A stretch of DNA of 57,401 nt, the filler included, from Sphacelaria rigidula (Eukaryota): NCBI GenBank assembly GCA_964200075.2. It is 6 parts of 6 records of this genome, joined end to end, with 100 filler letters (N's around TTAATTAATTAA, not from the genome) between each part and the next. Parts side by side here need not be neighbours in the genome. Positions count along the whole stretch, not along the records: positions 9,585 to 19,068 come from CAXNAA020008382.1; 5 more parts are not named here. One strand, 5' to 3'. A program made the position numbers and the translations under genes. Under the pieces are notes generated by a model, which was not told where the DNA came from, made no database searches, and saw nothing but the letters and a program-made list of their open reading frames with translations. Numbering within the stretch: position 1 is the first letter of the stretch; every line of letters begins with the position of its first letter. Positions 67-38,235 of the stretch are shown piece by piece.

Positions 67-352
67 GGGGGAATATTTTTTGCTCGCATTAATTATTTGA
101 CCATTGACCACGCATCCCTTGGGAGACGGAGCACAGTCACTACTTCTAGAAGAGACCTCCAAAATGTGGGCGCTCATTACGTGTCTTCCATATATTACAC
201 GAAAGCCTTCTACATATCTCATCCCCTCCCTGTCTTGCCGTCCGTGACCTCCATCCATTTCCCAGTATTGCGATCGTTTTCTCACTACTATCTAATGTAC
301 CAAACGATTTCATGCCAGCTTGGTTTACTTGCCACTTTCCTCCCACTAACAT
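67..352 (-). mobile_element. Decayed 3' end of a non-LTR retrotransposon (poly(C)-tail family)
   Basis: Minus strand reads ..SFGTLDSSEKTIAILG..NIWKTRNERP.. then (frameshift) ..APSPKGCVVNGQ.. and a short C-run (plus-strand G-run 67-71). Nucleotide-homologous to 13518-13634 (CGTAATGAGCGCC..GTGCTCCGTCTC..AAGGGATGCGTG). Confidence 0.7.
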
Positions 353-373
353 GTCCCATCCCTACTTGTACAT

Positions 374-478
374 AGTCCACATTCTCTGACTGGTGGGGGT
401 GAGGGTGGGGCTTATTCATTTGTTGCTTGCATGAGTACGCCTCCTCCCCCCCCCAAACCCACCAGATGTGGACTGTAT
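374..478. repeat. Imperfect inverted repeat made of two head-to-head poly(C)-tail fragments
   Basis: Left arm AGTCCACAT..CTGGTGGG..GGGGCTTATTCAT pairs with right arm ATGAGTACGCC..CCCACCAGATGTGGACT. The centre contains the reverse complement of GCAAGCAACAAATGA. Confidence 0.55.
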
Positions 479-3084
479 AAGGTGGGGGTGGGGGGCCAAC
501 TTTCGGAAACCTCCGGCATCAAATCAGAATGAACGCACAGATCGGGAATTTGGCGTACGTCGGGAATTCCGCACAGATGTGCGATGACTCCAAGAAAAAC
601 CTCACTTCCGGCCGTAAGGATGCCTGCTATCGCGGGCAGCCCCTCGTCGCACCTCGAGCTGCAACGGTTTGTCTCGCAGTGCTGTTATCTTGCGGTATTG
701 AGTGGTTCTACGCCGGGGGTGCACAAGGAATTTCTGGGCAGGGGTGCTGGATTTCGAAGCCGATAACGATGACACAGTTACAACAACAGTAGTGGTGTAG
801 GAAATCCAAGTCGCGCTGAACGTGAGGCGAACATGACAAATTATGAGATTTGTCAATGTTTGAGTGACACGATGTGAGTATACCTCAGCCAAGATTTGGC
901 CAAAGAAGTGCACCGCTACGGTAGAACAACTCTACTGGATATCGTCGCGGTTGCCGTGTGTGTGACACCGTGGCGGTGCACACGTGAAAACTATGGAGAA
1001 GCTACTTCACTGAGTCGGGACTCGGTAGCCACTCGACCGAGCACATGGAGACAGACACGTCCCGCAACCCATCCAGAGAGAGGGAAACACATCATCACCC
1101 ACAAAGAAAGCTGAAAGAGTGAAGAAAATACTTGCAGCAGGCAACCGCACCCTGCTTTATTCTCGGCGCACTTGTGACAACCATAGTCGCATTTTTAACC
1201 CCGCTCGTCACCACTCCCTGCACGAAGGTAACGAAGGTGCGACGTACGGATCTACTCCCAACTAGCGATGTTTCACAGCTTGTCCCTTTCCCCTGCACAG
1301 GGAGAACCAGTACGCCTGCTGTGATTTGACTCATAATCGCACGTATCGGCGTTATCGGCCAGAGGTGCGATAAGAAGAAAGTTATAGATGATTTCAAAAC
1401 ACGGTCACACGCTGCGCGCTGACGCGCACTTCTACGGTATCACCATTGGCGCTATCATGGCGGCTATCGCAATCACTTTTCATAAACAATTATAAGAGCA
1501 ACTCCGCTGGCCACGGCATATGCACGAATAACTGCGTGAAAACAGTCTTTTTTGTGTACACAAAGTAGTAGATGTTGTCTCTCCAACAATTATTTCCGTT
1601 CCCCGGCAGAAAAAACAAAAACAAAACGCCGGATGGTCGGCGGCGACCGAAAGGGTTAACGACCACCCACCGGATGTAGGGGATCCGAAAGTCTAGGTCA
1701 TTTCGGGTCCAGCTTGCCAGAAAATTTCGGAATTAAATTTTCATATGATCTCAACATCGATGACCAGATTACCCCCCGCCCCTCGGATGACCTGCGGTCA
1801 GGTGATGTGACAGCAGGTGATCAGTCCTTCCAGAAAATGTTCCCTGGCCAAAGCCATCCTCTAGTAATCGTTCGGAGTTGGTCTCGACAACCACATAGGC
1901 TCAGTTTTTGGACATTCAAGAGTTGTTTTTTCTGCGCTACTACTCTGCAGCCGAACAGCATGTTTTTGGACCGAAGTAGGGGTAACAACGCCCACCACAA
2001 ATCGACCTCCACACCGTATTGCCTCGACAAAGCCAATCTAGAAAGTATGAAGTGTTTCCAGGTGAACGGATTAGTTTTTCTTCCCAAGTCAACCGACTCC
2101 ACTTGTTGGGGTGGAGATAAGAGGTAGTAGCCCGTGGTAAAATCGACACTGCGAACCCGTCGAACAGGAATGGTTGATTCGGGCGCCAGTAATTTGTCCA
2201 TTTTGTATATTTGAATTTTGTGAACGACTGACTGCTTCTCTTCTGGAAACAGACAACAATGCTGACTACCAGAGTAGATGATCCATTGAATCGGCATTTT
2301 TTTCACTTGAAAAAGCCATGAAAATACTCATATAACCCACCATTATGATCGGACAGCTACTATCTCAAACTCTTGCTGAGACCAAAGGACTACGATAGCT
2401 CACCCTTTGCTCGCATAGGGTGGGTATTCGTTGAATCGGAATAATTTTCACACGAAAATGTCGTCAGACCACAACTCAAGATATTAACTCGTGGACGCTC
2501 GAAGGATGAAACAGTTGTCGTCATGTCGACATTCAGCAATGAGGTGTGATCTTCAAGACGGGGCTCGACTTCGCGAAAATGCGGGCACAATAGTGCGTCT
2601 TGTGCATATCTCGTTCTTGAACCCCCACGTTTCGTGCAACAATTTACACCCCCCTCCTGCAGTACATACAGTGGCCCTACAGCCGAGGCCGACCTACTCA
2701 AAACACTACGTTCATTGCTAAATGTATTTACATGTATATCGAGAGAGACGGTGAAAAATCCCGCATCCGACAGGGGTAATGCATTTGAAGTCACCCTGTG
2801 ATATAGGCCGTGCGAAAATGTTGCAAAAAGGTCTCACGAGTGGAGACAAACTCCGCCATACGCCGCCGGTCGAAAGCGAACCCGAGATTCCAATAAACTG
2901 CCGAAAAAACGAACGTAGAGTCTAGTACATGGACTGGTGGCGGGGAGAACAAACCATCGCCCGTTCACGAGAACAAAGTATTCTACATGAACGATTCAAG
3001 CAGCTCCGCAATACGATGATGATTGGTACTAATGATGTCCGAAAAAAGATGCACTCCTCAAATAAGCTCTCACCTTGTTCATCA

Positions 3085-5166
3085 TCAGAGAAACCCCAGG
3101 ATTGTCCTGAACACACCCTCCTCCTCCACCCCAACCGTCACCCGCACAGCCGAAATCAAGTACCAGTTGCCCTTGTCCCCGGCCACGTCCCTGCCCCACC
3201 CAGTCCTGCGATTCCCAAAAATGCTGGCACGCAGATCCACCCCCTTCACACTTTCCCCTTTCCCAGCCACGCTCTCGCCGTATTCCCCCGTCGCAAGCAC
3301 CCCTCCGATTGCCCCGTTCAAGTCATAGCGTTGCTGTACACTCGACCCCGTTCGACGGCTACCGACCTCGAGGACCACCGAACCCCAAACGTTCCGCTGT
3401 GCTTTGATGACAGCTGTCGACGGCACCCGCATCCTGTAGCTATCGGCGTGTTTCACTTTATACGGGAAGCCACCGCCGCCACCATCGCGGCCGCTACGGC
3501 TGCTGCGACCCCCGCTGCTTGGCACGAATCTTGGGAGATTCACTAGGACACCACCGGCCGCATGTCTCGGTTGCTTGTCGTCGGCAGATGCCGTCGTCTC
3601 CGCCGCAATCCAAGACTCACGGCGTTTTCGACGCACGCGCATCATGATGAGCCAGCCCCGACGGCGCCAAACCCTATCCGCGGGTGCCTTGGCTAGCATG
3701 CTAAGGATCTCGTCGAGTCTGTTCCGGTAGACCCCCGGAGACTGAGTTTGTAAGAGCTGTGATGCCACAGCTGCCGGTGTTCGACCCTCCCCATCAGTGG
3801 CTGCCTCGTCGGCGCCGAACCGCAGGAGAAGCTTCACGGAGTCCGCGTGGAGTGCCTTGCACGCGCGGTGCAGTGGGGTTTCGCCGGCATTGCTAGTTGC
3901 GTGCATGTCCGCGCCGGCTTTCAGGAATGCCTCGAGAGTGGCCACAGAGCCGAGACGGTGCCCTGCGGCGATGTGGGTTGCGGTGCAGCCGTGCTCGTCT
4001 CTCGCCTCGAGCTCAGCGTCCCGTTCCAACAACACGCGGACAGCCTCGCCGCTGCCCGACATGGCGCACGCGTGCAGGACGCTCCGTCCGCCACAGGAGA
4101 GGGAGCCCAGGCACGCCCCGTGAGCTAGGAGCTCCCGCATTACCTCGCTGTGCCCGCCGAGCGCCGCTCTGTGCAACGGGGACAGCGACAGGTGCACGCC
4201 GCCGTTGCCGTTCACAACTTCGAGAGAGCTTGCTTTGAGTAGTACTCTAACCATGTTGAGGTTACCGCTTCCCGCTGCAGTGTGCAGCGGCGTTTCGCCC
4301 TCGTTGTCGTGAGTGTCGATCTTGGCCCCTGCGCCTAGCAGGGCTTCTACGACGTCCTCGTGCCCCCTGAAGACCGCGAGATGCAGCGCTGTGCAGTTCT
4401 CGTCGTCAACGGCGTCTTTATTTGCCCCGGCAGAGACCATGGCTTGGACCGCAGCAACATGTCCGCGAGATGCGGCGCGGTGCAGCGGGGACCAGCGTGC
4501 GCTGGAATCATCCTCACTGTCGCTCTGGCTATTGCTGGTATCGGTGATTTCGTTCAACCAGCGATCACCGGTGTATGTGTCGTGGTGGTTCAGAGACCAC
4601 GATCTCCCGCTATGATCGCCGCCGGTCGAACTAGCCTCACTACTACAACTGCTACTACTGGGCACACGTTGTTGTCGCAGTACCGTACTGTTGTGGTTGT
4701 GGTTGTGGTCGGCATTGCTGTTGCTGTTGCTGTCGCATTTGTTGTTGCGCGTCCAACAATATGCACAGTTCGAACGGAAGGGACAGTGACAGCTCCCGGG
4801 TGTAGTGGACGATGCTTTGCCGCAGCTGCTACCGAAATCGCAATTGTTGAACCGCTGGTGTTGATTCCGCTGTTGTTGCTGTTGCTGTCGTATACAGTAT
4901 CCATAATCTGACGCGGAGCCGTCCTCGATGTCTTCAGTCTCGAGTTGAAAGCGAGCGCCGATAGCAGGGGGCGGCGTGATTTCTGTACCGACGAAAGGAA
5001 GCGGGCGCCCCATCACGCACTCGCCCGCTCCGGCTATGATTAGATTCGTCTCAACGCACCGATCACTGCTGCCAGGAGGGGTGTTTGCGAAAGGGATGTT
5101 GGATTGATTGGATGGTTGATCTGGAGGAACAGGCTTGGAGACGAAGGACATCATCCGTTCTCCCAT
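3085..5166 (-). CDS. Ankyrin-repeat protein, single exon, 693 aa
   Basis: Long uninterrupted ORF with about 7 ankyrin repeats (SPLHRAA, TALHLAV, GETPLHTAA, SPLHRAA, SVLHACA, TATHIAA, GETPLHRAC, then GRTP). Low-complexity Q/N/S N-terminus. C-terminal APADRVWRRRGWL..EEEGVFRTILGFL tail. Confidence 0.9.
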   Translation of the reverse strand: MGERMMSFVSKPVPPDQPSNQSNIPFANTPPGSSDRCVETNLIIAGAGECVMGRPLPFVGTEITPPPAIGARFQLETEDIEDGSASDYGYCIRQQQQQQRNQHQRFNNCDFGSSCGKASSTTPGSCHCPFRSNCAYCWTRNNKCDSNSNSNADHNHNHNSTVLRQQRVPSSSSCSSEASSTGGDHSGRSWSLNHHDTYTGDRWLNEITDTSNSQSDSEDDSSARWSPLHRAASRGHVAAVQAMVSAGANKDAVDDENCTALHLAVFRGHEDVVEALLGAGAKIDTHDNEGETPLHTAAGSGNLNMVRVLLKASSLEVVNGNGGVHLSLSPLHRAALGGHSEVMRELLAHGACLGSLSCGGRSVLHACAMSGSGEAVRVLLERDAELEARDEHGCTATHIAAGHRLGSVATLEAFLKAGADMHATSNAGETPLHRACKALHADSVKLLLRFGADEAATDGEGRTPAAVASQLLQTQSPGVYRNRLDEILSMLAKAPADRVWRRRGWLIMMRVRRKRRESWIAAETTASADDKQPRHAAGGVLVNLPRFVPSSGGRSSRSGRDGGGGGFPYKVKHADSYRMRVPSTAVIKAQRNVWGSVVLEVGSRRTGSSVQQRYDLNGAIGGVLATGEYGESVAGKGESVKGVDLRASIFGNRRTGWGRDVAGDKGNWYLISAVRVTVGVEEEGVFRTILGFL

Positions 5167-5514
5167 GCTACGGAATAAACAGGCTGGGTCGATGGTCTTG
5201 ACGCCGGTGATCTTGGGGGTTGTATCGGTAAAAGCGGCGCCGCTTGTTGGTACAGTGCTTGAGCGTGCTCACAAGTCGCTTATGATGCTGGTGTGCTGGT
5301 TCGGAATTAAGTGAGGCGGAGGAATTACAGGTTCCAGCGTTCATCAGTGGGCAGCGGAAATTGCAGTATCTGTAACCAGGACACGTACCTGTACACCACG
5401 ATAAGTGCACAGGGTTGTTTTATGTTAGGGCGAGGTTGCGACAAATACATATTGAGAGCAATTTACATCGAGGCATAGTCACGCCGTTCGACTTCCTTGG
5501 AGGTACAGTAGTAG

Positions 5515-5603
5515 TAGAGGTATCTCGAACTCGAGGTTCCTGATAGATTTTACATTAATTTACAGTCAACTATACCGAAAACCTCGAGTTTGAGATATCT
5601 CTA
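5515..5603. mobile_element. 89-bp MITE with 24-bp TIRs (hAT-like TAGAG terminus)
   Basis: TAGAGGTATCTCGAACTCGAGGTT (5515-5538) versus AACCTCGAGTTTGAGATATCTCTA (5580-5603), 2 mismatches. GTAGTAG direct repeat on both flanks (5508-5514, 5604-5610). Confidence 0.7.
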
Positions 5604-6859
5604 GTAGTAGCATCTTCTCTTAGGAAGTCAAACATTTTTAACATTCCATATCTTTCCAAGAAGGCAAATCCACCGCAGTCTGCATAGCACGTTTGAGACC
5701 TGACCCACAAGTGTAGCCCCGGCTACAGACAGTAGTACCGCTGTTTTGGTGGGAGACACTCCTCTGCACCTGAGAAGTAGCCGACAAAGCAGTGGGCCAA
5801 TCACATCGACCCCTGCCGCGGGCGACTGGCCGGGGACTGCGAACATGTACGTAACTGGCAGAACGTTTCGTGAGGCGGAAGAAGAGGGACAAGTTTTGCA
5901 GACCACAATTGGCCAGTGGATGCGTGATGCGTACCACATTACTGCCAACAGCGGTTGGGAGCAGTCCATTGGGTCCATACCGTGCAAATTTCCAATGGCG
6001 GTGCGATGCGCTGGATCCTCCAGTGCACTGTAGAGCAACTCTCCGAAAGAATGGGAAAAGTGTGGTGCGCGGGCATGGCAGAGTGCGAGTACAGTGCACA
6101 GGACAGTGTAGTACAACAGTACAGTACATTTTTCCGCGTTGCAAGGTGCAAGGTATCTACAACCAAGGAAGGCGGGATTGGGCGCGGATCTGTGCGACAG
6201 GTGTACTATTATAACTGAAACAATCACCAAAACGTCCCAAGTCTCAACTAAGGATGCCATACTACAGATGCCGTGGGGTATTTTGTCCGTATACACTTTT
6301 TACCACTACAGTACCGTACGGACAACATTTGCTGCAAAATACCTCACTGCGGATGTCGTACGTCGTAGGGTATCCTTGCTGTCCGTATACATTTTGCACT
6401 ACTCCCCAACTGGCAACATTCCCTCCATATGCTGCCTCAAAGTGCGGCATTAACAAGCCGAAAAATGAAACACATAAACCTTCATCACGGGCGGCAGGGT
6501 AGTGTCCAGGTCCACGGCGCACCGGCTACATGGTTCAGCGTACTGTGCGAATTCGTGTACCATACACGTTACTGCACTGCGCTTTTCTGTATGGTATTGT
6601 ACTGTAATTGCAACCCCTTTTGCGGCTGGCTGCGATGGCAAGAACGAGCAAATCGACGGCGACGTTTGGCAAATGTGGGCATCTCGACAACTGTCTCTGG
6701 ACCTACAAATATTGTGGGCGACGGGTGTGTGTCCCCGGGAGCGTCTTGTGTCTTTCGGAGATGTCTTGACTTTGGCATATATTTCGTCCGCCGTGGCCCC
6801 GTGGCCATGGTGATATCATGCTATGCGCACCCACGTGCGTTTTCATGAGATTGCATTCG

Positions 6860-11853: not shown

Positions 11854-14800
11854 ATGGACCATCATCATCATCACACCCTTCGTCATGAAGGCCGAAGCTC
11901 TCAGTTTCTGGCGACTCCCCCTACGGCCTTCGCAGCAGCACGAATACCACACGGTGTCCGTTACACAACCACAACAACCATTAAACATGTGAAACGGACG
12001 GTAGCCGTGGCCGCCAGCAGCACCGACCAGGTGGACCGTGCTCCTGTGTGGGAGTACGATGGCACACAACCAGATCCCGGTAGTAGCAGTGGCAGGAGGT
12101 CTTCATCTGGTGGCTTTAGCAGTGAACGTGTTGATGGTGATGGCGGCGGTCGCCACAGACGTGGTAACAGCGCCCGAAACCGGCAGAGCCCCAGCGAGGG
12201 CGGAGGATACGTGAGCTTCGACTCCGACACCGGCGGCGCAGTATGGAAGTATGACGGCGCCCAAGGCCCTGGCCTCGGCAGCTTTGCAGGCAGCGAAAAC
12301 GACGAACGCCGCGATGGCCGCCGCATGGATAGCAGTAGCTTCAGCAGTGGGCAAGGTCGGGGCAGAGGTAGAGGCGGCCGCGACAGCAACGGCCGCTACG
12401 GGGGAGCGAACAGGAGAGACGGCGATGGAGGGCGCCGGAGCGGCGGACGGTGGTTTTCAGATGCGAACAGTTCCGGCGGGTGGGGGGGCGGTGGTGGTAG
12501 AGGTGCTGGTGGTGGGGATGGTGGGCGGTTTAAAGGAGAGGGGGGGACACGCGGGGGTAGACAAGGTCGAGGACGGCGTAGCGATGGAAAAGATGGAGGG
12601 AAGCGAGGACTCCACTCTGAAAGTGTGAGCATGAGCTGGCTAGCAGAAACACATCAATTTCCTACCTTGACTCGCGTAGCACAATTTGGCGAAGGAATTT
12701 CACGTGTGAGACAGACTTGCGTATTTAGCGGCTATCAGCTGATCAAAATCGTTGAACTCGAGCCCGCTTTGTCCAATTACCTGTGTCATGGCTGCTTGTG
12801 TGTGCGTTCCACGCGTTCTGTACTCGGGAGTGGTCGGTTTTACCTGACTGTTCAAGATGAAGAGGCGTAGGATGTGTTACACGCTCCACGTGCGCTGTCG
12901 GCAGACAGACAGAAGGGGACCAACAACGAGCCGAAATTGTGCTTATCTCACGGCCAACTTTATGCAGGACCTGTTCAACGGCTGCCGCAGGATGATGAAC
13001 ATGGCTGCCGCTACATCCCTGGCATGCAATACTGTGGCGGGCCTGCGTCGAGTACCCACAATGCGACCACAACATATCCGCCCCGTGCACAAGTCCACAA
13101 GCCCACAATCTCCTAGGGTGTATATCTAATCTGTAATTTGCCGCACTTGACGGTCTTCCAAAACCACCTCGTACCGCGTACGTCGCACAGGTCAGGCAGG
13201 GGAAGGAGCTAGCAAGTAGAATCAAGGAGCAGGGCCAGAAACGCGACTGGAAGGGCATTTTGGAATCGCTAGACAAGGGGCCCAAGAACGCCATCGTATG
13301 CACGTAAGCTGAATTGCACGGCAAACAGAGCAAATAGTAAAAGGTCCCTCTTGTTGTTTATGCACGTGCTTCTCGTGTGCGGCCGGCGCTACTCTGATTC
13401 CTTCTTTCTCCCCCACCCCCCCCCCGCCGCCCGCCCCACCAGCCGCTAGCGGCTCCCACCGCGACACAACGAGGCNNNNNNNNNNGCCCTCCCCTTGTTC
13501 CCCCCCCCCCCCCCCCCGTAATGAGCGCCGGAAGGTTGAAGGTGTCTCTAATAGGAGTAGGAACGGTGCTCCGTCTCGAAAGGGATGCGTGATTCGAACG
13601 ACTAAGGCAAGCAACAAATGAGTACGCCCCCCCCTCCACGGGGGTTGGCGTCGGTTAGTAATGACGCTGTAAAACACGCCACTCACTGAGTAAGCTAGGT
13701 AACCAGATTGCCGGTTTTATCGCGCGCTCACGTTTCCTCTGCGTCACCCACGATGGTGGTGGAGCTATAACATGTTGTGCGGGGTGGGAGAACCTCATTT
13801 ACGCGCAAAGGGGATGATCATACTATGTAGTGTTCGAATGGTGAGACGCCCGTGAGGCAGCGTGTATCCCATGGCTGTCTCTGGTAGGGGCGATATCAGC
13901 AAATGAAGCATCTCATTGAAGGCGGTCATCAATACGCAAGATAATCGGAATGCATCGGGCGGAACAAGTTTAAGAGGATGCAGCTCACCCTTCATGCGAC
14001 TCACCAAATACATCACGGCACTGCATGCTTGACGATTGATTGCGATCCGGGTCCGGCGAAAACGCGGCGTGCCCCGTCCCGGCTTTGTAGGGATGCGAGG
14101 TCATGAGTATCCCCCCCCCCTCCCCCCCTCCCTCCTTCTCAGTTGCCCGCACTTTTTCCTGTTCATCTTTTCGGTTGACGTTATGAGTCGCTTCGGTTAT
14201 TTTAGTAAAAACAAATCATGGAAAGCACCTGGCTGAGCGTACTGTCTATATGTATCCTCATAAGCCAACGAAAATCGAGAGAATTCCCTCAAATGCTGCC
14301 TTGAATGACCCAAAATTAGTCGTGTACGAAACACCCTCATTCTCCGACCTTTTCTACACGTATTACATGCCTGTCACACAGAGTGTGGCGTCCGGTCTTT
14401 CCTGTTAGTACTAGTGCATTCATTCTCATTTGATGTTTCATGTAAGTTCTTCACTGTCTAGTATCACCATGTAGATGAGAGTGCTGCGCAGTCGTTCCTC
14501 TCAGCCCCACCGTCTGTGGGTTGCCTGACATGTCTGCGTCTCCAGTGTCGCCATCACGGCCTTGGGCAAAATCGGGAAGTGGCATCTCGCGTTGGACATT
14601 TTGAACGACATGGGCGTGAGGGGAGATGGCACAGACAAGCCCAGGGCCGATGCCTTCCTCTACGCCGCAGCTATCACAGCTTGCGGGAAATATGGAAGGC
14701 CAGTGGAGGTAAATGACATCATGCCTATATCATTGTGGGTATGTGGCACTTTCCGTCACAGCACACGCAGGTGAACCGTCGTTGCTGTTTTTCGTGGACT

Positions 14801-17800
14801 CACGACAACATGAGCTGAAAGAGATGAACACCTGGACCCTACTCTTCGCCCCAGACAACCATCCGTATGCCCCGCACTGCCACAATCAACGGAACACTGG
14901 TCACGGCTTGCTTTCTGCTACGTCATCTCAGCTTCCCTGTCTTGCGTCCTCATTCCCCCCTAACCGCAAAAATACTCGCCAACACCGCAAACTATATTCT
15001 GCACCGTGGCCCCCGACCTTCTCGGACTCTACCCTATATCGCACATGAGAAGGCCGTAGCACTGCTAGAGCAGATGGGAGAACGCTGCATCCAGCCGGAT
15101 GAGGTTTGCTACGGTGCCACCATTGCAGCCCTCAGCGAGGTAGCCGGTAAGCAGACCCGAAGCACTTGGGGAGCGGGCACCAAAGAAGCCACCCCGGTCC
15201 AGGCGGGTCCCAAGGAAACTTCCTGGGGAAGCAAGAGGGAAGGTGGGGCTGTGACCCATGCTGACCGCGCGCCCGGAGAGCATGATGGTGATATCGTCCC
15301 TACGCGAGCCCACGAGAAGGCTGTGGCGTTGATCGAGCGGATGCGCCGCGACGGGCCGAGGTATTTTTCGTAGCAATTGATGAGTATTCTGGTATATGCT
15401 TTTTGTTTTGTTTTTTTATGGAGTAACGAAACGAGCGCGTTGATCCCTTGGGTATGATTCTGTACTCTACGTGGTGAATGTCGCTTGCGACCGAGCCTAT
15501 CGAACGCGTCTCGTGCGCAAACGCTTTGAATGTCGAGGCAGGCTGTGTTTTGTCACTTTGACAAAAAACATGCACAGAGGCGTGCGTCTCGAAGCACGGC
15601 CATACCCGATTCAATTGTTTTGGCGGTATCCGTTTTCCGCATTTCCCATTCACCCTGTTTGCCCACGTATCTTTCCCTTGTCGTATGTTTGTTGTTGTCG
15701 CGTTTGCATGTTTCTGCTTCTGGCGTCGGAATGCTATTCCTTTTTGCGATGGTCTTATACATATGGGAACAATACACGCTAATGAATGGAAATGGTCTTC
15801 GAGGGAACAGTCCCAACGAACAGTGCTACGCGTCGGCCATGACGGCCTGCGCAAGGGCCCTCCAACCTCTGGCGGCCATCAGGTTACTCGCCGCCATGAA
15901 GCAGGACGGAGTGTCCCCGAACTTGATTGCGTTGAACGCTGCCGTGGATGCATGTGGGAAGGTGACACGGCCGATGGTATCCGACAATGACAAGAAATCG
16001 CGAGCGAAGTTTGCGCGTTATTTCGATCTTGTGTTTGAGTGTTACTACAGACTCTTGCAAGGCGACCTCTACACGGTGTAATTGCACATGGAGCGTGTAT
16101 GTATTGTTATTTCTTGTCTCTCGCATCGCATTGAGCATACGACAGTGGAGGAGCATCGAGAAATGCACGTTACTACACAAAACCCCACACAACAACAAAC
16201 AACAACCAAAAAAAAAAAAAACAAAAAAACAAANNNNNNNNNNTGGTTGTGTTTGGGTCTCGCTCGCGGTAAGCGCATGCGCGGGGGGGGAAGACGGGTG
16301 AATTTCGTTTTCTCCCCCCCCCCCCCCCCCCCTCTCCCAGAGTAAGTTGCTGCTCTAGTTGAACCTCCGTCTTATGCAGAGCACTGCGAATACCCCACAC
16401 CCATTGTTGAGTTGACCTTAGCCCCGTGGGCGTGAGAAACCATTTGGAACAACTTACTCGGCCGATTTTCAACGCCGATAATTCGACGCAACAGATAAGC
16501 AGCACCTTCATTGGTTGTGAGCACCATCTGCAAATAACAACGTACTGCATATATGTGCCGTCGCTCGCACCCCCGACTCATGGATATCGTTTCACCAAGA
16601 GCAGCAGAACTGTCATAGCTGTAGTGATCCACCTCGGATCTGTCCGAGAGAATTTCTCACACGAGCGGTTAACGTCACCGAAATAAATTCACAACGAGAA
16701 CGATTGAACCCACTTTGCTACACTGATACGACTCCTTGTTGCTCTCTCTTATCCTCCCCACGACTACAGGGCGGTGCTACAGACGAAGCTGTTCGTCTTA
16801 TGCGAGTCATGGAGAAAGCTTACGGCGTAAAGCCCGACCAAATCACGTACAACACTGCCATTTCCGCACTAACCAAGGCAGGCCGGTCCGCGGAAGCAAG
16901 GTAGGCAAGGTGGCGAGTTATTCCAAATCAGACATTGAACCAGATTTAACATGTTCGGTAGATCCGAGCAGGGGACAGCAGCTTGTGCATTTTATTTTGT
17001 TGTACTGGCAACCGCCGTGTGCTCGGCTCGTATTTTCCGCGCCGCAATGATCGAGTACCTCCTCTTTGTCTCTTTCCCTCTTTACCCTTGTTGTTTTCAC
17101 CTGCTGTGGTCATTTCCTCATCGTACTAGGCAATTGTTGGAAGAAATGCCTTCGAAGGGGCTGAGACCAAATAGGATCAGCTACGCGGCGGCCATGCAGG
17201 TACATGGTTTCTTGTTCGATCAAACTCTAGTGGCACCACCAACCGACGGGAGAGCGTTGGTAGCGCTGTAGCCACCGCTGCAAGTGCCCTTTTCACTGCT
17301 GTCGGCATGTTCGTTGTCAAATAAGTCACACAAGCAGTTATTTGTGGCAACACTGCCTGCTCTGACACGGGTAAATTGTTGAATGAATCATTTTCCGCCC
17401 AGATCGCAACTTTCCAGCTTGTCGAGTCGACCAGTAACTCAACTCGTTCTTCGAGCTACATCCGGTTTCCCCTTGGTCCCCCTCCCCGTTCAGAGTGTAA
17501 TTTACGTTTGTAATGTGGAAAATAATTACACCCGACCGCAAGGGCTTCGCAACAGCCGACGACCCTCGCAACGCGTCCAAGCTCACGGAGCAGATGAAAG
17601 AGGATGGGATTGAAATGGACGTGGTCAACTACGGTGTCGCCATCGGCGCGTGCGCCAAGAGCGCGGACTTGAAGGGAGCGATGAAGCTCTTGAAGGTGAA
17701 ACCATGCCCCCCCCTAATCGCCCACTTTGTCAATTAATAGCTAGGTATGCTTTATCTCCATAGTTGAACATTTTCCTTTTTTTGTTGTGCCTCTTGAGCA

Positions 17801-18306: not shown

Positions 18307-18576
18307 GTCAGGACATGGACAATAATTACTGCTTCACGCATCATGACAGGGAATAAGCAAACAGGAGAACAGCAATCTTGTTTGAAGATTGAGTGCGTGT
18401 TGTTCTCAGTGAGTCAGACAGAAGCAAAAAGAGAGGATGACATCGGGTGCCCAACGCCTCATTCGTGAAACTGCTTCGAAATCTTCGGGTCCGAGCGACT
18501 TGTCTCTGCATTGACGACCGCACGGCCCCCATACCCGCCCCCGGGGCGAGTGCTTCCCCCCGAACCCCCTATTGGC

Positions 18577-19068
18577 TTGGTGTCTGCTGGAAATGACGCT
18601 GTAAAACACGCCTCTCACTGCGCAAGCTAGGCAACCAGGTTGCCGTTTTTTTGCGCGCCCACTTTATTTCTGTGGCGGCCATGATGGTGGTCGAGCTAAA
18701 ACATATTATGCGGGGTGGGAGAACCTCATTTACGCGCAAGGGGGATGATCATACCATGTAATGTTTGGATTTTGAGACATCCATGAGGCAGTGTTCAAGC
18801 CATGGCTGCCTCTGGAAGTGGCGGTACCAGAAAATGACGCAACTCATTTGAGGCTTTCATCCGTATGCAAGATAATCTGTACGCTTCGGGCGGAGCAATC
18901 TTGAAAGGATGCAGCTCACCCTTCGTGCGACCCACCAGGCACATCACGGCGCTTTCCGCTTGGTGATTGATTGCGATCCGGGTCCGGCGAAAACCCGGCG
19001 TGCTCCATCTCGCTTTTGTAGGGATGCGAGGTCAATGGTCACATGACGACGGCACGCGAGATCATGAG
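18577..19068 (+). mobile_element. About 490-bp interspersed repeat, copy 2 (runs into the contig end)
   Basis: Homologous to 13645-14110. Ends GGGATGCGAGGTCAATGGTCA..CATGAG, nearly identical to the LINE 3' end on the minus strand at about 98-118. Confidence 0.8.
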
Positions 19069-19168: not shown

Positions 19169-19235
19169 CGTCGATCCTGAGGTGTTTTGAACTACGTCGC
19201 GGTCCTCTAAGCACGCGGTCCTCTCACGCATTACA
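19169..19235. mobile_element. Right end of a TGTAATG..CATTACA MITE (partial, cut by the contig start)
   Basis: CGGTCCTCTAAGCACGCGGTCCTCTCACGCATTACA matches the ends of the copies at 27152-27356 and 27771-27981. Confidence 0.85.
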
Positions 19236-23607: not shown

Positions 23608-23654
<47 letters not shown>

Positions 23655-26600
23655 ACCCCCCCCACCACCACACACCAAACAACCGCACGAGACAGCAAAC
23701 AAAGACACAAAACACACACNNNNNNNNNNGTATCCGAAAAAAAACGACAAAAGATATGCGTTCGCGTGGGGCCCCCAGCCGCGCCCACCCTCAATTCTTC
23801 CCCCCCCCCCCCCCCCCCCCCCCGGGCACCTCTGGACGATGGTTCGGGCTAAATGTCACTGGCTGTTCACGGTCAAAGGTAGATTTCTCAATATAGACAG
23901 CGCCCGACTACAACTGCGATATGATTCAAGGTGACACATTGGCATCAACCCGCCCCACCTTTCCCTCATGGAGGTTTACGTAAGTATAGATCACGGGCTA
24001 TGTCGCCGCGTGCACCCCGGATACCTGCATCGAAACCTTCCCGCTCAAAAGTGTGGACATGGGGTCCTTGATCCCGAATGGGTTCAACTCGTCCCGCCTC
24101 TCGCCCCCCGCCCAGCAGCCCACGAACTACTGTTCTCAACATAACGGTTGAACCCCCAATATGCACGACCGGTTACCATTGCGAACAGCAACTCCGTTTT
24201 TCCTCCCCGCCCTCGCTCACCCACCGACAGCACACGCACCTCAGGGGTCATATCGGGAATGCCCTTAGTGGATTGGGGAAGGATTCGGTCATTTGGGGTG
24301 TCGGCATAACAATCACCGTCACCAGAGTTTGGGGTGTTTGAAGGACCGGGAGTAGGGGTTGGGCCGCGAGTAGGTGTCGGGTCGGGGATGGTCTGAGAAC
24401 CTATCGCAAACGAACGGTCGAGACATAGCACCAGGGAAAGGGCGGGGGGGCGTGAGGGGGGTGCTCGTTTATGGCTTGCCTTCGTTGTTGGACCGTCGAC
24501 CACGCATTCCTTTCGAAACGGGGCAGGGGGGGGGGGGGAGGGGGGGTCATAACACGTATGCACCTGCGGTTCGGAAAAGGTAAACTACGCGCCGCCCAGG
24601 CGACGAGTTCATGCTTTTGGTGTAGCGAGTTTCTTTCAGGTATCCTGATGAAACAGTGAGTAGATGGCATACCCGAGTTTGCCCGCTCTCAATCGTCAAT
24701 CTACAGGGCACACACCGCTGGCATACGCCACGTGGCTACTCATCAAGTGATCGTCGACTAGCACCCGCTTCTCTCTGCAATGTCGACTTATCGGACGGTG
24801 CTGGGCATGCATATTGCGTTTGGTATAGGCTCTGGACTGTAGACCACGGAATCTTACGGAGCATTGGTTTCATTTTTCATCGGAGACGGCCGACCGCTTA
24901 TTGTTCACTTCACGAAACGTGTTGTCGACTCCCACGACATCGCAAGGTTATGACCCATTTTGTGAACTACCGACCGAAGGATATCAGCTTCTCCAATCCG
25001 ACAAAACAAGCTGTGCTCGTTCTCGATGAATTTGAGGGGATAAGGAAACGCTTGCGTTGATATTTATTTCACTTACTGCCGATGCTGTAGACGTTCATGG
25101 CGTTGCCGCCGCCACAAATCTCGTTTGCATCACCACTGCAAGGCATGGTACACGCGGTGGACAGGCCGTGTTGCGATATGTCGCTCGTGCCCGGTCCACA
25201 CCAACACTGTTGGGCAATAGTTCGTGCAAACGTTGAAAAGACGGTAGGGGTAATCTTACTAAATGAGGGAGCAAGCCAGCATACACGTTGCAGGATACAA
25301 GAATATATTCGGTGGTGCAAGCGAATATCAGGTGTTGGTCCGACCTGGGTCACAAATCGAACATTCCGTCCCAGTTCACCTCGTTGTGTGGCTCTTCCCG
25401 GGAAGTCGTGTGTTCTGCAAGACAGACGTCGAACGTGTTTTGAGCAGGAACTGAAACACGGGCAGAGAAAATGCACATTTTGATTCTATAAATATTGTCA
25501 AACTAAGCACTGGCTCAGTGGTATTTTTGACGCGTCAAGGCAGACGTCTGCTCCTGCCCCCTGTACACCATCTACTGTGTGTAGTGAAGGAAATGAATAT
25601 GCACGGCTACGTCAACACGTTTCTCGCACCTCCTTACTGTACTGCACCCCGTAGTAGGCGTTGGAAGGGTCGGCCTCGCAGATGGCCTTGCAGCTCTGTC
25701 GAAAGCCGAACAGGGGTCATCCCCACCACGGTATTGGGCGCAAGGTGTGTGTGCCACGACAGCGAAAGCCAACAGACCAAGAACGGGGGGGGAAAGAACA
25801 CCACTTCATTTTCAACGACTGAACACGGAAATAGGTGAGCAGGGGCGATTGTTTTGACAGTGAGAGCCTGCGGGCCAAAACCCAGGGACGAGTACGTCAA
25901 TCGACCTTCAACGACTCAGCACACAACCAGGGCATGGCAGCACCGCTGGGACAATCCACTCGCGCGTGGCGCTTGGAAGAGAAAGTGGAGAAATATACAC
26001 AGACGAGCACATTATTCACCACGTGCGGTCTACTACATACATATGTTGCTGGACATTCCACAGTGGCCATTCGTAACACCGAGTGCCTCTGAATTGGCAC
26101 CTCTACTATTTTGAATTGGTCAAGTGTAAGCAGCTTCATCTGGCTCTCTTTTCACCCCACCTTATCCCGCAACGTCAGCTTCCGAGCAACGTTCATCGTG
26201 GTAATCTCGTTCCCTTACCTCTCCCTTCACTCCCCATCCTACTTACCGCAATGGTCAGGTCAGCGATGCCCTTCTTGGCGCTGGAAAGGATGCGAGCATT
26301 TTGATTGTCCTCGTAGCATAAACCATCGTCGGGTGGGGGTTCTTGTCCGCCAGTGGTGTATTCGAAAACCTGCATCAGTTGTCAGGGTGTGGACTCAATA
26401 TTCCGTCACTAGCATATTACTGTACAGTCGTCGTGGAGTTGTATTCTCATCGCGATCGGGATCGTGAACAAGCGGAATCGTCGCGTCGCGTAGCCATTCA
26501 ACATAACAAGCAGTATGGTTGCCTCCTCCTTTTTCCAACCGGACTTTTGGTCTCGACTGGCACTCTGCCACGGTCAAACATATCTGAAATACACGGATCT

Positions 26601-27642
26601 TTTTTTCGTGTCATTTCGATCGACAATAGACCACCGCTCGCAGTCACCAAACCTCCCAAGGGATGACGAGCGTATACGTGCAATGAGTCGAACATAAATG
26701 TATATCGAGACATTTCCGTGACTCCCCATTTCTCGGAGGATGTAATGCCACGGGACGTTCAATACCTATCGGGGAAACAGCATATTTTATGTCCTGCGAG
26801 TTGCAGTTCTGACCTGCAAGGCGTTCGATCCGCCGCAGTCTTCCTCAGGGGAGCCCGTGCAGGGTTTGGTGCAGCTGGATTGTGGGAGGCTTCCCAGGCC
26901 GGCGTAGTCCGCCCCGGAGACACCGCACCAGCACTCCGATCCGTACTGCAGCCCGAAGTACTGGTACGTCCCCTTCGTGTTACAGAAATCGAAGCAGAAC
27001 TGTTCCACAAAAACACACATGAACGAACGGGGAGAGAGGAGAAGACGGGGGTGACAGAATTACGGGTGATCGCGCAGTTTCAGCATCAGGTTGAAGTACA
27101 ATACATTGACTCCGAGGGTGTAGCTTCGTCCTCTGTTTTTGGTGGTGGTACTGTAATGCGTGAGAGAACCGCGTGCTTAGAGGACCGCATCGGAATTTGA
27201 ACATCCCTATGGTGAGTGTTAGGGTTAGCGTTAGGGTTATGGTCAGGGGCGTGGTACCTCCAGAGACTGCCCCGATTGGTTTTCAAAAACGTCGATCCTG
27301 AGGTGTTTTGAACAACGGCACGGTCCTCCAAGCACGCGGTCCTCTCACGCATTACAGTACCCCACGAAGACGTCCTCTTTTCGGTTATTATCCGTAGGTT
27401 TGCTACACACACCCCACTTTGCATGTCAGTTTAAATGAACCTCCTCGGAAGGACTCAAGGGAAGTGATGGATGCAGCATCGACTTCAAGGTTGTCATTTT
27501 GTTCTTCAATTTCTCGTTGCCTGACTCGTGGAGTTTGTGTTACCTGCTGGTCGTTCTCAGGGCTGCCCGTGACGCCCAGCTCGAACCGCCGAGCGCTTTG
27601 CGAGTCTGCATAGCATCCCAGATCCTTCGAACCGGTGGCTGC
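19282..27642 (-). CDS. WSC x3 + Agd3-like (CBM87/CE18-family) carbohydrate-active protein, partial, multi-exon
   Basis: Phase-consistent exons (minus): 27642-27544, 26999-26814, 26369-26247, 25695-25630, 25206-25077, 24400-24240, 23250-23185, 22613-22484, 22265-22168, 21718-21653, 21348-21254, 20961-20762, 20450-20327, 19468-19282. Three WSC domains (GCYAD/CYED..C..C..YFGLQYGSECWCG..C..PC.G...E.CGG.NA). Then TDAQFATLSEYSSTFKARIVYLD..NLFTRPIRITG..TTPIAEY..GLEELHVFFSIG..WVHHIVEWATKGVFM, matching my recollection of the Agd3 N-terminal module (QW..LY.YQ..FGVRMV..D; GREQMAFF..HAWI.W.TRGLY). Start exon not identified; 3' exons lost at the contig edge. Confidence 0.88.
27152..27356. mobile_element. 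About 205-bp MITE, TGT..ACA termini, about 36-bp TIR, 4-bp TSD GTAC, intronic
   Basis: TGTAATGCGTGAGAGAACCGCGTGCTTAGAGGACCG ... CGGTCCTCCAAGCACGCGGTCCTCTCACGCATTACA. GTAC at 27148-27151 and 27357-27360. Internal TTAGGG-like units. Confidence 0.9.
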
Positions 27643-27770: not shown

Positions 27771-27981
27771 TGTAATGCGTGAGAGGACCACGTGCTCAGA
27801 GGACCGCATCGGAATTTGAACACCCCTATGGTTAGGGTTAGGGTCAGGGTTAGTGTTGGGGTTAGGGTCAGGGACGTGGTACCTGCAGGGACTTGCCCCA
27901 TTGGTTTTGAAAAACATCGATCTTGCGGTGTTTCGAACTTCGGCGCGGTCCTCTAAGCACGCGGTCCTCTCACGCATTACA
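27771..27981. mobile_element. About 211-bp MITE of the same family, 5-bp TSD GGCGT
   Basis: Same TIRs. GGCGT at 27766-27770 and 27982-27986. Internal GGTTAGGGTTAGGGTCAGGGTTAGTGTTGGGGTTAGGGTCAGGG. Confidence 0.9.
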
Positions 27982-28652
27982 GGCGTGGTAGAAGTATCGG
28001 TGTACAACATCTAGCACACTCTCGATATACTCCAAACTACGCGCATAAAAAACACTGCGCATTTTTTTCATTTTTTCATGTGATATATGATGAGCATTTG
28101 TTTCTCTCCCTCTGTCACTGCATGAGTCACAGGCATGATAGCAGAATACAAGCAAAAAGGACGAATGAATTGAAAGACACGGAGGGAGATCAACGAATAA
28201 CATGTAGCGGAGGAAGAAGGGATGAACTGAGAGTTGAAGTCCACCCAGCCATGAGTCGAGGACGGAAATAGTCCTCCCGCAGAGTTCACCACTTCGGAGA
28301 GGTTTACTGGCTCGTTTTGGTTTCACTGTGAACACTTACGTCCGAATCTTGATCGAGGACTGTGCTCTTGGTGTTTTCCTAGACTAGCGTGCGAAGAACG
28401 CGTTCTTGATCAAATCAGCTCATGCAGCGCCCATTCAAGATCTTGCAACACACGATTGGATTGGGAGCAGTTCCAACTCCTTTTCCCCGAGGGACTTACC
28501 ATGCCTTCGCTGGGACGAGAGATGGGGTTAGAGTCAGGGTTATTTAAAATAATGAAACTTAAAGAATATTATCATCCCCACCAAGTAACAGCCGATTCTC
28601 GAAAATGGGGTTAAAAAAAAATTGAGGCTCAACTCAAAAGCCGTGCTTTCCC

Positions 28653-28752: not shown

Positions 28753-28785
28753 ACAAATGAGGACGCCCCCCCCCCCCCCCCCCCC
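28753..28785 (+). mobile_element. Extreme 3' end of the poly(C)-tailed non-LTR family
   Basis: ACAAATGAGGACG followed by C20. One mismatch to ACAAATGAGTACG(C)n. Confidence 0.65.
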
Positions 28786-30467: not shown

Positions 30468-30830
30468 TAGGCCCATTATCGACACTAGTTGTGCGGAGAC
30501 GTCATGAATTTTCGGACTTTTTGGACTTTGCATTCAGACTTCTCCGAAAACGAAACGGCTTGGGTGTTGCTCCGAAGCCTCACTTTTGGAGAAGTCCGAA
30601 AAGCTCGGACGGCAACGCAGCGCATCAGACAGCTACCCTGTGGGTATGCTGTGGAGGTCGCTAGCGTTCTAGAGTAATCAAGTATCTTGCTAGTCCTGAA
30701 CAATTCGGAGCCAGTTCGATTTTTCGTACTTCTTCCCAAAATGAAGGTTCGGAAAAGAAATCAAGCGGTATCGTTCTCGGAGAAGTCTGAACGCAAAGTT
30801 CGAAACGTTCGAAAAATCACACGGACATCG
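30468..30830. mobile_element. Foldback/MITE-like element (AGGCCCATT..ATCGACACT family)
   Basis: 30500-30600 is an imperfect inverted repeat of 30725-30820 (TTCAGACTTCTCCGA versus TCGGAGAAGTCTGAA). The body is homologous to 33450-33610. Confidence 0.65.
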
Positions 30831-31239: not shown

Positions 31240-34200
31240 GTAAGCGCTGGTGACAAGCATACATGCGGTGTCAAAGTGGATCAAACGCTGTCCTGCTGGG
31301 GCAAAACGCGCGTGGCGCCGCGGGGACTTTTCCAACAACTAAGTGTCGGCGCACATCACACCTGCGCACTTAGGAGGGAGGGATCGGCGGTATGCTGGGG
31401 GGATAATATCTCTGGGAGTACATCGAAAGTGCCCAAAAATACGACATTTGTACAGGTGAGTTGAAGTCAATGAAATTATAGACTGGGTCGCATCAACTTC
31501 AAGCATTACTTCAGGGCAACGTTGAATACAGGCCTTCTGCGTACACTAGTGGAAGTAGGCGGAAATCAGGAGACAGTGCGCAGGAAAGGTGAAGAGGTGG
31601 TGCAGCTCCGTGGTTCATCGAAACAAGCATCGCCTGCGGCGATTCCTGCATCTGAGGATGACTTTCCAGTGGCGGGCGAACCGTAGGTGTGTTGTCAGCG
31701 CATATCCCGGGATGGTGCAAGAAAAGGTGAACCATATCAGACACTCGTACAGCAACGGTTTCCGATCATTGTCCCGCATGTGCTCCGTAGGTCGTTGCAG
31801 GTAAGGACAATAGTTGCGGCTTGCGGCAAAATGGGGGAGTCGATTGCTGGGGCAGCAACTCAATGGGTCAAAGTCAACCGCCGCTCGATGTCCAGTTTCG
31901 GCAAATCGCTGCTTCCAACAGCAGGTGTGCGATAGATTTGCTCCGATTATTGATGTATATTGTCGCGCCACGCCACCCGTGTGTTGTAGACCGCGAGAGG
32001 TTTTGCACCGACGAATATTACAAAACAGACCAGCGTCTCGAATGGTGTTGTGCAGTTGAAACCGTCCATTTGCTACCGGTGGATGTGGGAACACGACCCA
32101 ATTTGGTGCCGAACATATATCCAGCCTGGGAAATTCCGGTAGACAACACGTCGCCGAAGTGTATCGTTGGCGGAGAAACCCAGGCGGAGGATGGAGGTTC
32201 GAGCAACGTTCTATGGAGCGAAACACACGTGTTCTCCATTTGTTGAACAGCCGAAATGCCTTACCGGGCGCGAAAACTCCTACCCTCACTCGATGGCTGC
32301 AAACAGCACACGCAAACTTCAGTAGAGCAGCACCACATAGGAATCACAGTATGTGGCTAGAAGGTAAGTTAATGGAATCATGTCCCATAGGTAGCTCGAT
32401 GCTGTCGTTATCGCACCCTGAAACATCGTTCGGACTGATTCTCATATGCAGACATGTATGCGGTTTGACTGTTGCGGGAGCGATTCAGTGCTGGGGGCGA
32501 GATATGCGAGGGGAAACGCAGTCCAGGGAAGGACCGTGGCAGCAGGTAAGCAAGGGCGCCTATGTTTAGCGCAAACGGTACTAGCCATGGTATCAATTTG
32601 ATCCACTCCAACCCGCTTTGTAGCGAATAAGGTCACCAACCTGGTCGCTAGTAGCTCGATGTAGGTGACTGCGCTGGCCACCAGCAGCGTTACCGAGGGC
32701 TGCCGATGGTGCGGCGAAAAAGTACATTCTGAGCCGAGTATCTGGTGCCGAACCAGGCGCATCCTCATGTGAATTATGCGCTGATTTCTACCCTCGACTA
32801 CAGCGGAGTATCGCGCAAGCGCCAGTTCCGTCGCCATATCAACCCACGCAGTCGACTACTAGCTAGAGTGAGCGCCACGCAGGCTATAGTTTGCGCTGCT
32901 TGTTTGAAGTAGCTCTCATCTTCGTGGTCTGTCCATATAGCTTGACCCGCAGAACCGAACGTTTTTGTCGACCTCGAGAAGATCTGTAATAGTGAATCAG
33001 GGAACGGGTCATGTTCACGTTCGGTGTTGTAGCGTAGTGCCTTATGCTACCAGGGTCCCACACGAACAGTTGATTGGCGTCGGCGCGACAAATGCTTTTT
33101 CTGGCACACACTCTGCTCGCATGTCCAATTTGTTTTACCGCTTGGGCCTGTAGGTTACGTGTGGACAGTGGACAACTTGTGGAATACGGGGGGCTGACGG
33201 AGGCATCGAATGCTGGGGAATGAAAAAGGTCTGTCACATCAACAACTCAATCAGTAATGACTGTGGCGATTTTGAGACTATTCTTCGCGGGGTGTTACTC
33301 TTTATCGCATGCCCTAGTTCCGCTTTATATGTTCACCAGAACTCTGCAATGAATGGTGCGCACAAGCTATTTCCAGGTGTTAGGCCCATTGTTATCGACA
33401 CTTTTTTTTCAGAGATCTCAGAACTTTTCAGAGCTTTCGTACTCCGCGTTCAGACTTCTCCGAGGAAAAATCGGCTTGTTCTTATCCCCGAATCTTCATT
33501 TCTGGAGGAGTCAGAAACATTCGTACTGCAGCGCAGCACTTCGGAGAGCTACCCTGTCAATACGCCGTGGTGCTTGCAAGCATTCGAGAATAATCAGGTA
33601 ACTTGCCTTTCCCGACAATTTCGGGTATCTCCGAAGAAAACAGGGGGAGATACGTGACACACGTGACACATTTGAAAAAACGGAAAAAACGTAACTTTGG
33701 GCCATTTAACGCCACGTAAGGTTTGATTTTTCGGACGGGATAAATGCAACGTAACGTGATGTAACATGTGGACCTTGAAGCAGTGTCTCTTGGTGTTTTC
33801 CATGTGTAAAAAAAGGCGTTTTTGTGAATTTTTAACGTGACACGTGACATATTCACGAAAACAAGCAGAGTCTTCGTCACATTTGGAAAGTAAAACGCAA
33901 TGTTAGAGTTCATGCAAAGGATCAAACGTTGCTACACGTTACGCTACATATGTCCCATCCAAAAAATCAAATCTTACGTAGCGTCAAATGACCCAAAGTT
34001 ACGTGTTTTTGAATGTGTCATGTGAAAACGTCACGTATCACGTATTCTTACCTGGAAAAAACAGTGTCGATAATAATGGGTCTTCGTCGCACCTGATAAT
34101 GCGTTTCCACGGGACGTAATTCAGAGTGGTGCAATGTAAGGGGTGAACAGTTCCCAGGTTGAAATCGTTTGGACTCGTTTACCCCGCCCCCAAAACGGCC

Positions 34201-38164: not shown

Positions 38165-38235
38165 ATGGTCAATGGTCAAACGACTAAGGCAAGCAACAAG
38201 TGAGTACGCCCCCCCCCCCCCTTCCCCCCCCCCCC
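38165..38235 (+). mobile_element. 3' end of the poly(C)-tailed non-LTR family
   Basis: TGGTCAATGGTCAAACGACTAAGGCAAGCAACAAGTGAGTACG followed by a C-run into the contig end (reads VNGQTTKASNK*). Confidence 0.75.

Follow-up and report, generated by a model that had tools for sequence, protein, structure and literature searches.

Long interspersed nuclear elements (LINEs) normally end in a poly(A) tail or in short A/T-rich repeats. Mammalian L1, together with Alu and SVA, is characterized by a poly(A) tail and a TTTT/AA nick, and LINEs of the RTE, CR1 and L2 types carry short tandem-repeat tails and have short interspersed nuclear element (SINE) partners with a common 3' end. We analyzed a stretch of 57,401 nt from the genome of Sphacelaria rigidula (assembly GCA_964200075.2), referred to below as the window, in which a short motif followed by a run of C recurs at several sites. 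This motif is very probably the 3' end of an abundant brown-algal retrotransposon lacking long terminal repeats (non-LTR), with a homopolymeric (C)n tail, that fits the description of RTE-X families of Ectocarpus.

These Ectocarpus families are the closest described systems. In supplementary file 1 of PMC12477816, RTEX-1_Ec32 is listed with a "single EN-RT ORF; (C)n 3'" (an endonuclease and reverse transcriptase (RT) in one open reading frame (ORF)), a "C-rich" target-site duplication (TSD) and lengths of 5867 and 5511 bp, and RTEX-2_Ec32 with "(C)n termini/TSD" (PMC12477816), while RTE-1_Ec32 is described as "(CAA)n 3'" (PMC12477816). Two non-autonomous families accompany them: RTEX-N1_Ec32, of 604-607 bp, with "60 bp 3' end 83% RTEX-1/RTEX-2", which "can be present in tandem", and RTEX-N2_Ec32, of 188 bp, which shares its 3' end with autonomous RTE-X elements (PMC12477816). 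According to these entries, both have a 5' head of unknown origin, a shared 3' end of ~60-100 bp and a C-rich TSD. The main text gives a copy number of >6000 for RTEX-N1_Ec32, and in the passages of that text available to us the C tail is not mentioned and "C-rich" has no occurrence (PMC12477816).

The window consists of six chunks of equal size (9483-9484 nt) with N44-TTAATTAATTAA-N44 spacers between them, and contains three N10 scaffold gaps inside chunks. We call the autonomous poly(C) family A, and a non-coding partner of ~0.5 kb B. Sites of family A were read directly and its copies were then placed by BLAST and nhmmer. The terminus reads ..GGCAAGCAACAA(A/G)TGAGTACG, followed by a C-run, and was found at three exact sites and one near-exact site, against none expected. 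When up to three mismatches were allowed, the 21-nt GGCAAGCAACAARTGAGTACG gave four matches in the window and none in 100 shuffles; three of them are exact (13606-13626(+), 38188-38208(+) and 46840-46860(+)) and the fourth, at 411-431(-), has three mismatches. The claim from which this work started, made on the sequence alone and called here the original prediction, that several sites have this 3' terminus and C-run in common, was thus borne out.

Nine to ten copies of 9-312 nt, located in five of the six chunks, were identified by nhmmer and BLAST, all with the same 3' end and with variable 5' truncation (Table 1). The full element gave eight blastn matches of 26-315 nt with one shared 3' end point, and nhmmer returned seven matches in the window at E < 1e-5, plus two weak ones. 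This placement confirmed the coinciding 3' ends and varying 5' truncations that had been predicted, as well as the dispersal of the copies, but the predicted spread over four chunks was too narrow and the copy at 24461-24525(-) had been missed. The longest copy, at 72-386(-), is 76.5% identical to the full element by blastn over 315 nt and 52-67% identical by tblastn, its frame corresponding to residues 1284-1382 of the ORF described below. The copy at 13518-13626 is directly preceded by a C18 run (13500-13517) and is 85% identical to positions 5037-5179 of the full-length element on contig L005, whereas that at 24461-24525(-) starts (TGCCCCGTTTCG..) where an abundant class of ~61 nt starts in contigs from sequencing runs. 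The tails range from C5 to C20+ between copies, and some are interrupted by a single T. Among the nine copies whose 5' flank can be read, five show at least five consecutive C within 20 nt upstream, and two more have a short C-rich motif at the expected start of the TSD. An L1-like poly(A) LINE was ruled out as an identity for the family, since every readable copy ends in a C-run.

Table 1. Positions of family A, its partner B and the target-site duplication in the window.
Feature	Position	Strand	Remarks
Longest family-A copy in the window	72-386	-	~312 nt, diverged; C5 tail at 67-71
Family-A terminus, ~26 nt	411-436	-	C-rich tail at 392-410; directly 5' of the 72-386 copy
Family-A terminus, 9 nt (ATGAGTACG)	431-439	+	C-rich tail at 440-454; head-to-head with 411-436(-)
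Family-A copy, 5'-truncated	13518-13626	+	109 nt, 6-nt internal deletion; nhmmer E 2.4e-19
C8 tail of the 13518-13626 copy	13627-13634	+	
B copy	13642-14110	+	Starts shortly behind the C8 of the preceding A copy; internal deletion near the end
Tail of the first B copy, C10-T-C7	14111-14128	+	
Second B copy	18574-19068	+	C-rich sequence before it; 3' end cut by the chunk end; nhmmer E 5.2e-16
Terminal unit, 65 nt	24461-24525	-	C7-T-C13 upstream, C-rich tail downstream (whole 24439-24546); nhmmer E 6.4e-16
Terminus, last 13 nt	28753-28765	+	C20 tail, to 28785; 5' side lost at the chunk start
Family-A terminus, 43 nt	38166-38208	+	C13-TT-C12 tail, to 38235, cut at the chunk end; 96% identity
TSD, left copy, (CCC)GTATGAACCGAA	46807-46821	+	
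Family-A terminus, 39 nt	46822-46860	+	C7, to 46867; 97.8% identity
TSD, right copy, (CCC)GTATGAACCGAA	46865-46879	+	First three C common with the tail

A particular arrangement was observed at 396-454, where a G-rich run, a reverse-complemented terminus of ~26 nt, a 9-nt terminus and a C-rich run follow one another with the tails pointing outward. These head-to-head termini look like the product of a twin-priming-like event, primed from both sides of one break, the alternatives being chance or rearrangement.

To find long copies, public sequence collections were scanned with the exact 27-nt terminus, which is present in three contigs, two from metagenomes (L001 and L002) and one from a "bacterial" metagenome-assembled genome (MAG; L003). 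In each of them, an open frame of ≥1005 aa ends ..RNGAPSRKGCVVNGQ(M/T)TKASNK and is followed by TGA, GTACG and C8-C14, the stop codon lying 5 nt before the C-run; the reading frame that had been predicted to stop 5 nt before the run is therefore the end of an intact ORF. The full 5259-nt contig of the L003 locus (L005) contains a single ORF of 1382 aa at 113-4261(-), with its stop 5 nt before a C14. This ORF matches Exo_endo_phos (E 8.1e-11, residues 193-415), Exo_endo_phos_2 (E 1.4e-07) and RVT_1 (E 6.7e-32), and consists, in order, of an N-terminal domain, an apurinic/apyrimidinic (AP)-type endonuclease, an RT and a C-terminal Cys/His knuckle, a Cys-x-Cys...His...Cys motif C-terminal to the RT that is invariant in the alignment. 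An RT-encoding master, which the original prediction had asked for, thus exists. The best PDB matches of the ORF were human L1 ORF2p (E about 2e-21) and R2 proteins. Its relatives with names were restricted to Ectocarpus sp., whose gene models are 48-71% identical, and to Undaria, with a short match. The C-terminal ..G(C/R/H)VVNG.. motif is conserved in these relatives, whose own C-termini read ..G(R/H)VVNG..AK.

Over ~3.03 kb, L001 and L002 are 95.9% and 79% identical to L005, respectively; both alignments stop in the C-run, after which the two contigs continue into unrelated sequence. No LTRs, terminal inverted repeats (TIRs) or terminal direct repeats were detected by self-BLAST of the 5259 nt of the full-length copy, in which a local duplication of 80 nt in the flank was the only repeat. 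L003 and L005 are filed under an "uncultured bacterium" MAG, yet they hold a complete LINE of brown-alga type, present as a single copy in that 4.6-Mb genome; this contig is probably mis-binned eukaryotic DNA. Upstream of the element, at L005 4735-4790 (+ of the locus), lies an inverted fragment (GGTGCTCCGTCTC...GGTCAATGG..CATGAGT) with no clean C-run. It resembles the 3' module of a related family and is a candidate 5' boundary of the element or an older copy.

The 39-nt copy at 46822-46860 provides the TSD check. The sequence of 46807-46879 reads CCCGTATGAACCGAA, the 39-nt terminus with C4, and CCCGTATGAACCGAA again, and allows two parsings, a TSD of 15 nt (tail C4) and one of 12 nt (tail C7), the duplication of 12-15 nt being clean in both cases. 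The host of this insertion is a diverged satellite at 46500-47765, made of units of ~84 nt (..catgtacgtatgattcatgctgcatgaa..) that are 74-86% alike. At the equivalent point, nothing interrupts three paralogous units (near 46930-46980, 47010-47060 and 47686-47735), which have only CCT, CTC or CTT in place of the target CCC. As these units contain no C-run, the C-run arrived with the 39-nt copy. A clean TSD that begins with C supports target-primed reverse transcription, in which the tail may have paired, on the nicked strand, with a short G motif. With an RT, an AP-like endonuclease, a constant 3' end with 5' truncation, a TSD and neither LTR nor TIR, family A is a LINE of the AP-endonuclease (APE) type.

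The element was also followed in sequencing runs of the organism. Logan contigs of four runs (X1, X3, X5 and X7), chosen because they contain positions 13486-16233 of the window and labelled organism A and "algae metagenome", were aligned to L005 at ≥85% likeness; X1 is possibly the sample of the window itself. The numbers of matching contigs were 82,399 (X1), 94,040 (X3), 4,926 (X5) and 4,578 (X7), so that family A, with tens of thousands of matching contigs, is very abundant. All 30 bins of L005 were covered in X1, X3 and X5, and 29 of 30 in X7, which indicates that the RT-coding body of family A is present in these runs. The summed depth in X1, which is not a copy number, was 4.4 M in the terminus bin, 1.0 M in the adjacent bin and from 32 up to 0.47 M across the remaining 28 bins.

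Contigs leaving the element were examined at their loose ends and joints, for which the best-supported cases are given here (5055 further loose ends and 1221 further joints exist). Loose ends at L005 95-97 are carried by 1420, 378 and 350 contigs in X1 and by 1407 and 390 in X3. Past these ends, the contigs enter G-runs, corresponding to C on the strand of the element, before reaching heterogeneous sequence (agreement 0.36-0.44). This makes the C-run the true end of the element throughout the genome, of variable length and with unique flanks. That the run is terminal and not internal, as predicted, follows both from these flanks and from the homology of the long copies, which stops in the run. 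A second set of loose ends, at L005 171-173, also enters G-runs (best-supported: 378 contigs in X1, 31 + 60 in X5 and 32 + 56 in X7), and ten of the joints listed step back by 73-81 nt, from 171-175 to 95-101 (134 contigs in X1 and 112 in X3). Together, these joints and ends indicate that many copies are only ~61 nt long, with a C-run before them, and often in tandem. The predicted abundant LINE with almost no 3' untranslated region (UTR) and a C tail is hence supported by the RT ORF, the TSD and the run contigs.

Family A shares its end with a non-coding partner. The two B copies of the window are 81.6% identical over 462 nt (13642-14103 versus 18574-19034), begin at the same point, right behind C-rich sequence, and contain no long ORF. 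The end of B reads ..GTAGGGATGCGAGGTC(AATGGTCACATGACGACGGCACGCGAGATC)ATGAGTA, then C10-T-C7, and its last ~70 nt align with the family-A end as a diverged version of it; CCCCCCCTCC is a possible TSD of the copy at 13642. A Pol III-type SINE head (tRNA, 5S or 7SL) was not found, the whole window giving 0 matches in the Rfam gathering scan and 0 genes with ARAGORN. A sequence like the start of B also stands behind the C14 of L005. Because B occurs without A at 18574, and unrelated DNA comes after A at four further sites, the adjacency of A and B can be read as insertion into an older tail rather than as a composite unit.

A 3' module of ~60-70 nt with its C tail is thus common to A, B and the mini-unit of ~61-65 nt. 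Within the module, a 6-bp hairpin (CGUCUC...GGGAUG) is kept in seven of seven aligned ends, where a change on both sides occurs once (C-G to U-A, in the 24461 copy) and a change on one side three times; the loop is GAAA in A and different in B. Folding of the whole module gave Z-scores of -2.8 and -1.5 for two intact copies and of -0.6 to +1.8 for the others, seven sequences in all, which are too few for proof, and the putative conserved hairpin can be regarded as a lead only.

Comparison with the Ectocarpus entries shows close correspondence. Like RTEX-1_Ec32 and RTEX-2_Ec32, family A has a single EN-RT ORF, a (C)n 3' end, a TSD starting with CCC and a brown-algal host, and the ORF of ~4.15 kb plus 5' region on L005 is in keeping with their 5.5-5.9 kb; this likeness is one of description, and not of compared consensus sequences. 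The closest Ectocarpus gene models, which need not be copies of RTEX-1/2, are only 48-71% identical to family A and point to another family or species. B and the ~61-65-nt unit resemble RTEX-N1_Ec32 and RTEX-N2_Ec32 in being non-coding, in sharing the 3' end of an autonomous element and in occurring in tandem, again by description and not by compared sequences. However, B is ~0.47-0.5 kb long, and the tandem unit, at ~61 nt, falls below the length of every family in the Ectocarpus rows consulted. Thus, the reading as a LINE with a C tail held, but the kind is not new: RTE-X with "(C)n 3'" is listed for Ectocarpus (PMC12477816), and every feature found here has a counterpart in the entries of that supplementary table. 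The interesting part would rather be the proposed mechanism of C-tail priming and the ~61-nt tandem module.

Our search of the literature for other poly-C-tailed LINEs found none, a weak negative since "poly(C)" as written is not searchable, and a search for RTEX returned, beyond the Ectocarpus paper, a Chlorella preprint whose available passages are silent on tails. With L1, family A has in common an AP endonuclease and RT, 5' truncation, TSDs that vary, a homopolymer tail for which a complementary target tract could serve as primer, insertions into older tails and, presumably, non-coding partners mobilized in trans. It differs from L1 in its tail of C instead of A, its single ORF and its near absence of a 3' UTR, and from the L1/Alu pair in that its partners share a specific 3' module (the "stringent" type), whereas Alu shares the A tail only. 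RTE, CR1 and L2 elements carry a genomically templated tail other than poly(A), as family A probably does, and like it have a 3' module common to non-autonomous partners, but the tail of family A is a mononucleotide run of C.

In the proposed mechanism, the endonuclease would nick the bottom strand where it bears a G-tract, opposite a C-tract of the top strand. The freed G-rich 3' end would pair with the C-run in the RNA of the element and prime reverse transcription, in parallel with the pairing of T-tract and poly(A) in L1. The RT would recognize the shared module of ~60-70 nt; as the stop codon is placed 5 nt before the tail, this cis-acting 3' end overlaps the end of the ORF. Recognition of this module would explain both the mobilization of non-coding partners in trans and the tandem pile-up at older C tails. 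A pure (C)n tail cannot derive from polyadenylation and must be templated or added by the machinery of the element; for this reason, the run is probably copied from the donor, by read-through of the master's own (C)n, and its length would then vary by slippage.

Several points weigh against the identification of the motif as the tailed end of an RTE-X-like LINE. The window holds no full-length copy, and the masters come from other public contigs for which the same species is not demonstrable. A single TSD is unambiguous, the others being masked by C-runs or lost at chunk ends. At two independent places (13634 to 13642, and L005), a B-like element comes after an A tail, which makes a composite unit conceivable. 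As many as 14 of the 22 long C/G runs of the window (≥8 nt) have no recognizable element alongside. Folding of the whole module is not clearly better than that of shuffles. The RTE-X label derives from agreement with the published description, from the host and from the homology of unnamed gene models in Ectocarpus rather than from a phylogeny. Finally, the runs consist of contigs, none on record as RNA, which X5 and X7 may nevertheless be, and both the C-run of the transcript and priming at G-tracts are deduced from DNA.

Among other explanations, an untemplated origin of the tail, by addition of G to the nicked target 3' end or of C to the RNA by the RT or a host enzyme, retains the most credit, although we consider it unlikely. 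Non-templated nucleotide addition by non-LTR RTs is established and lends it support, as do the spread of lengths from C5 to C20+ and the single-T interruptions; however, GTACG is directly followed by a genomic C8-C14 in all three intact long copies, and a read-through RNA would hold the template. It is less likely still that the element is tailless and inserts site-specifically into existing (C)n microsatellites, the C-run being target DNA duplicated as TSD. The C18 before 13518, the C13 before 24525(-) and the C-rich sequence before both B copies would fit such a preference, as would the 14 bare runs and the Ectocarpus entry for RTEX-2, which couples termini and TSD (PMC12477816). On the other hand, the deduced empty site of the copy at 46822-46867 has only CCC where the filled site has C7, meaning that at least four C were added, and the length of the tails varies widely from copy to copy. 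A composite repeat, in which the C-run would be internal (A 3' end, (C)n, B), is suggested by the two A-to-B junctions but is very improbable, as L001, L002 and the copies ending at 46867 and 24439 go on into unrelated sequence or a TSD, the homology of L001 and L002 to L005 ends in the C-run, more than 2000 contigs are heterogeneous beyond the run and B stands without A at 18574. The chance that the motif is a homopolymer artefact of assembly or sequencing, or the TIR of a DNA transposon, is negligible: N10 scaffold gaps do lie within ~100 nt of long C-runs, but the terminus and an intact RT ORF recur in three independent public contigs, contigs from the runs of three studies contain them too, the TSD is clean and, as the original prediction required, the full-length copy has no terminal inverted repeats.

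The tailed LINE that we favor had also been proposed as the source of the long C/G runs that break the assembly, a proposal that was upheld in part. Eight of the 22 runs adjoin the element, six of them (five tails) directly after a recognizable terminus and two directly before a copy, but the remaining 14 do not. The very long runs C43, C24, C19 and G16 (23612-23663, 23800-23823, 16314-16332 and 57379-57394, respectively) have no recognizable terminus alongside, and N10 scaffold gaps are located 57-71 nt from some very long C/G runs. These bare runs could be copies of zero length, with a tail only, or independent homopolymer tracts.

A second, unrelated LINE was found at 41523-45712(+). It has an endonuclease-like ORF at 41523-42635 (weak Exo_endo_phos) and an RT ORF at 43365-44657 (RVT_1 E 3.3e-21), followed by decayed frames and a (CAAT)n-like repeat end near 45693-45708, which resembles the "(CAA)n 3'" end listed for RTE families of Ectocarpus. 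At E ≤ 0.001, 905 relatives of its RT were returned, none more than 57% identical. As a master of the poly(C) family this element was rejected, given its (CAAT)n-like end and an RT only 28% identical.

Other repeats were also noted in the window. Imperfect palindromes of 100-400 nt, with 68-76% identity by self-BLAST, were observed at 5509-5609, 30505-30819, 33649-34039 and 39143-39425 and may be foldback elements or miniature inverted-repeat transposable element (MITE)-like elements. Short repeats, dispersed or local and unrelated to the poly(C) family, pair at 86-94% identity 9409-9484 with 48166-48243, 19169-19235 with 27290-27356 and 27917-27981, and 27152-27357 with 27771-27982. The stretch has a G+C content of ~52%, and its eukaryotic gene content appears in short exon-like ORFs as fragments of ankyrin, PPR, WSC and RCC1 domains.

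More tentatively, and as a speculation that could well prove wrong, the last ~61 nt of the ORF together with (C)n may form a self-sufficient retrotransposition module, with a hairpin that would be recognized by the RT and priming between G-tract and C-tail. If so, each copy would recreate its preferred target, a C-run, and thereby build tandem arrays and part of the long C/G tracts, and the module would be among the smallest known LINE-dependent retroposons as well as a natural case of a priming homopolymer other than poly(A). More generally, poly(C) LINEs offer a natural test of how far base-pairing between 3' tail and target drives target-primed reverse transcription. In practice, family A also seeds tracts of a single base and arrays of tandem mini-units, which break up short-read assemblies of brown algae and can mislead gene models.

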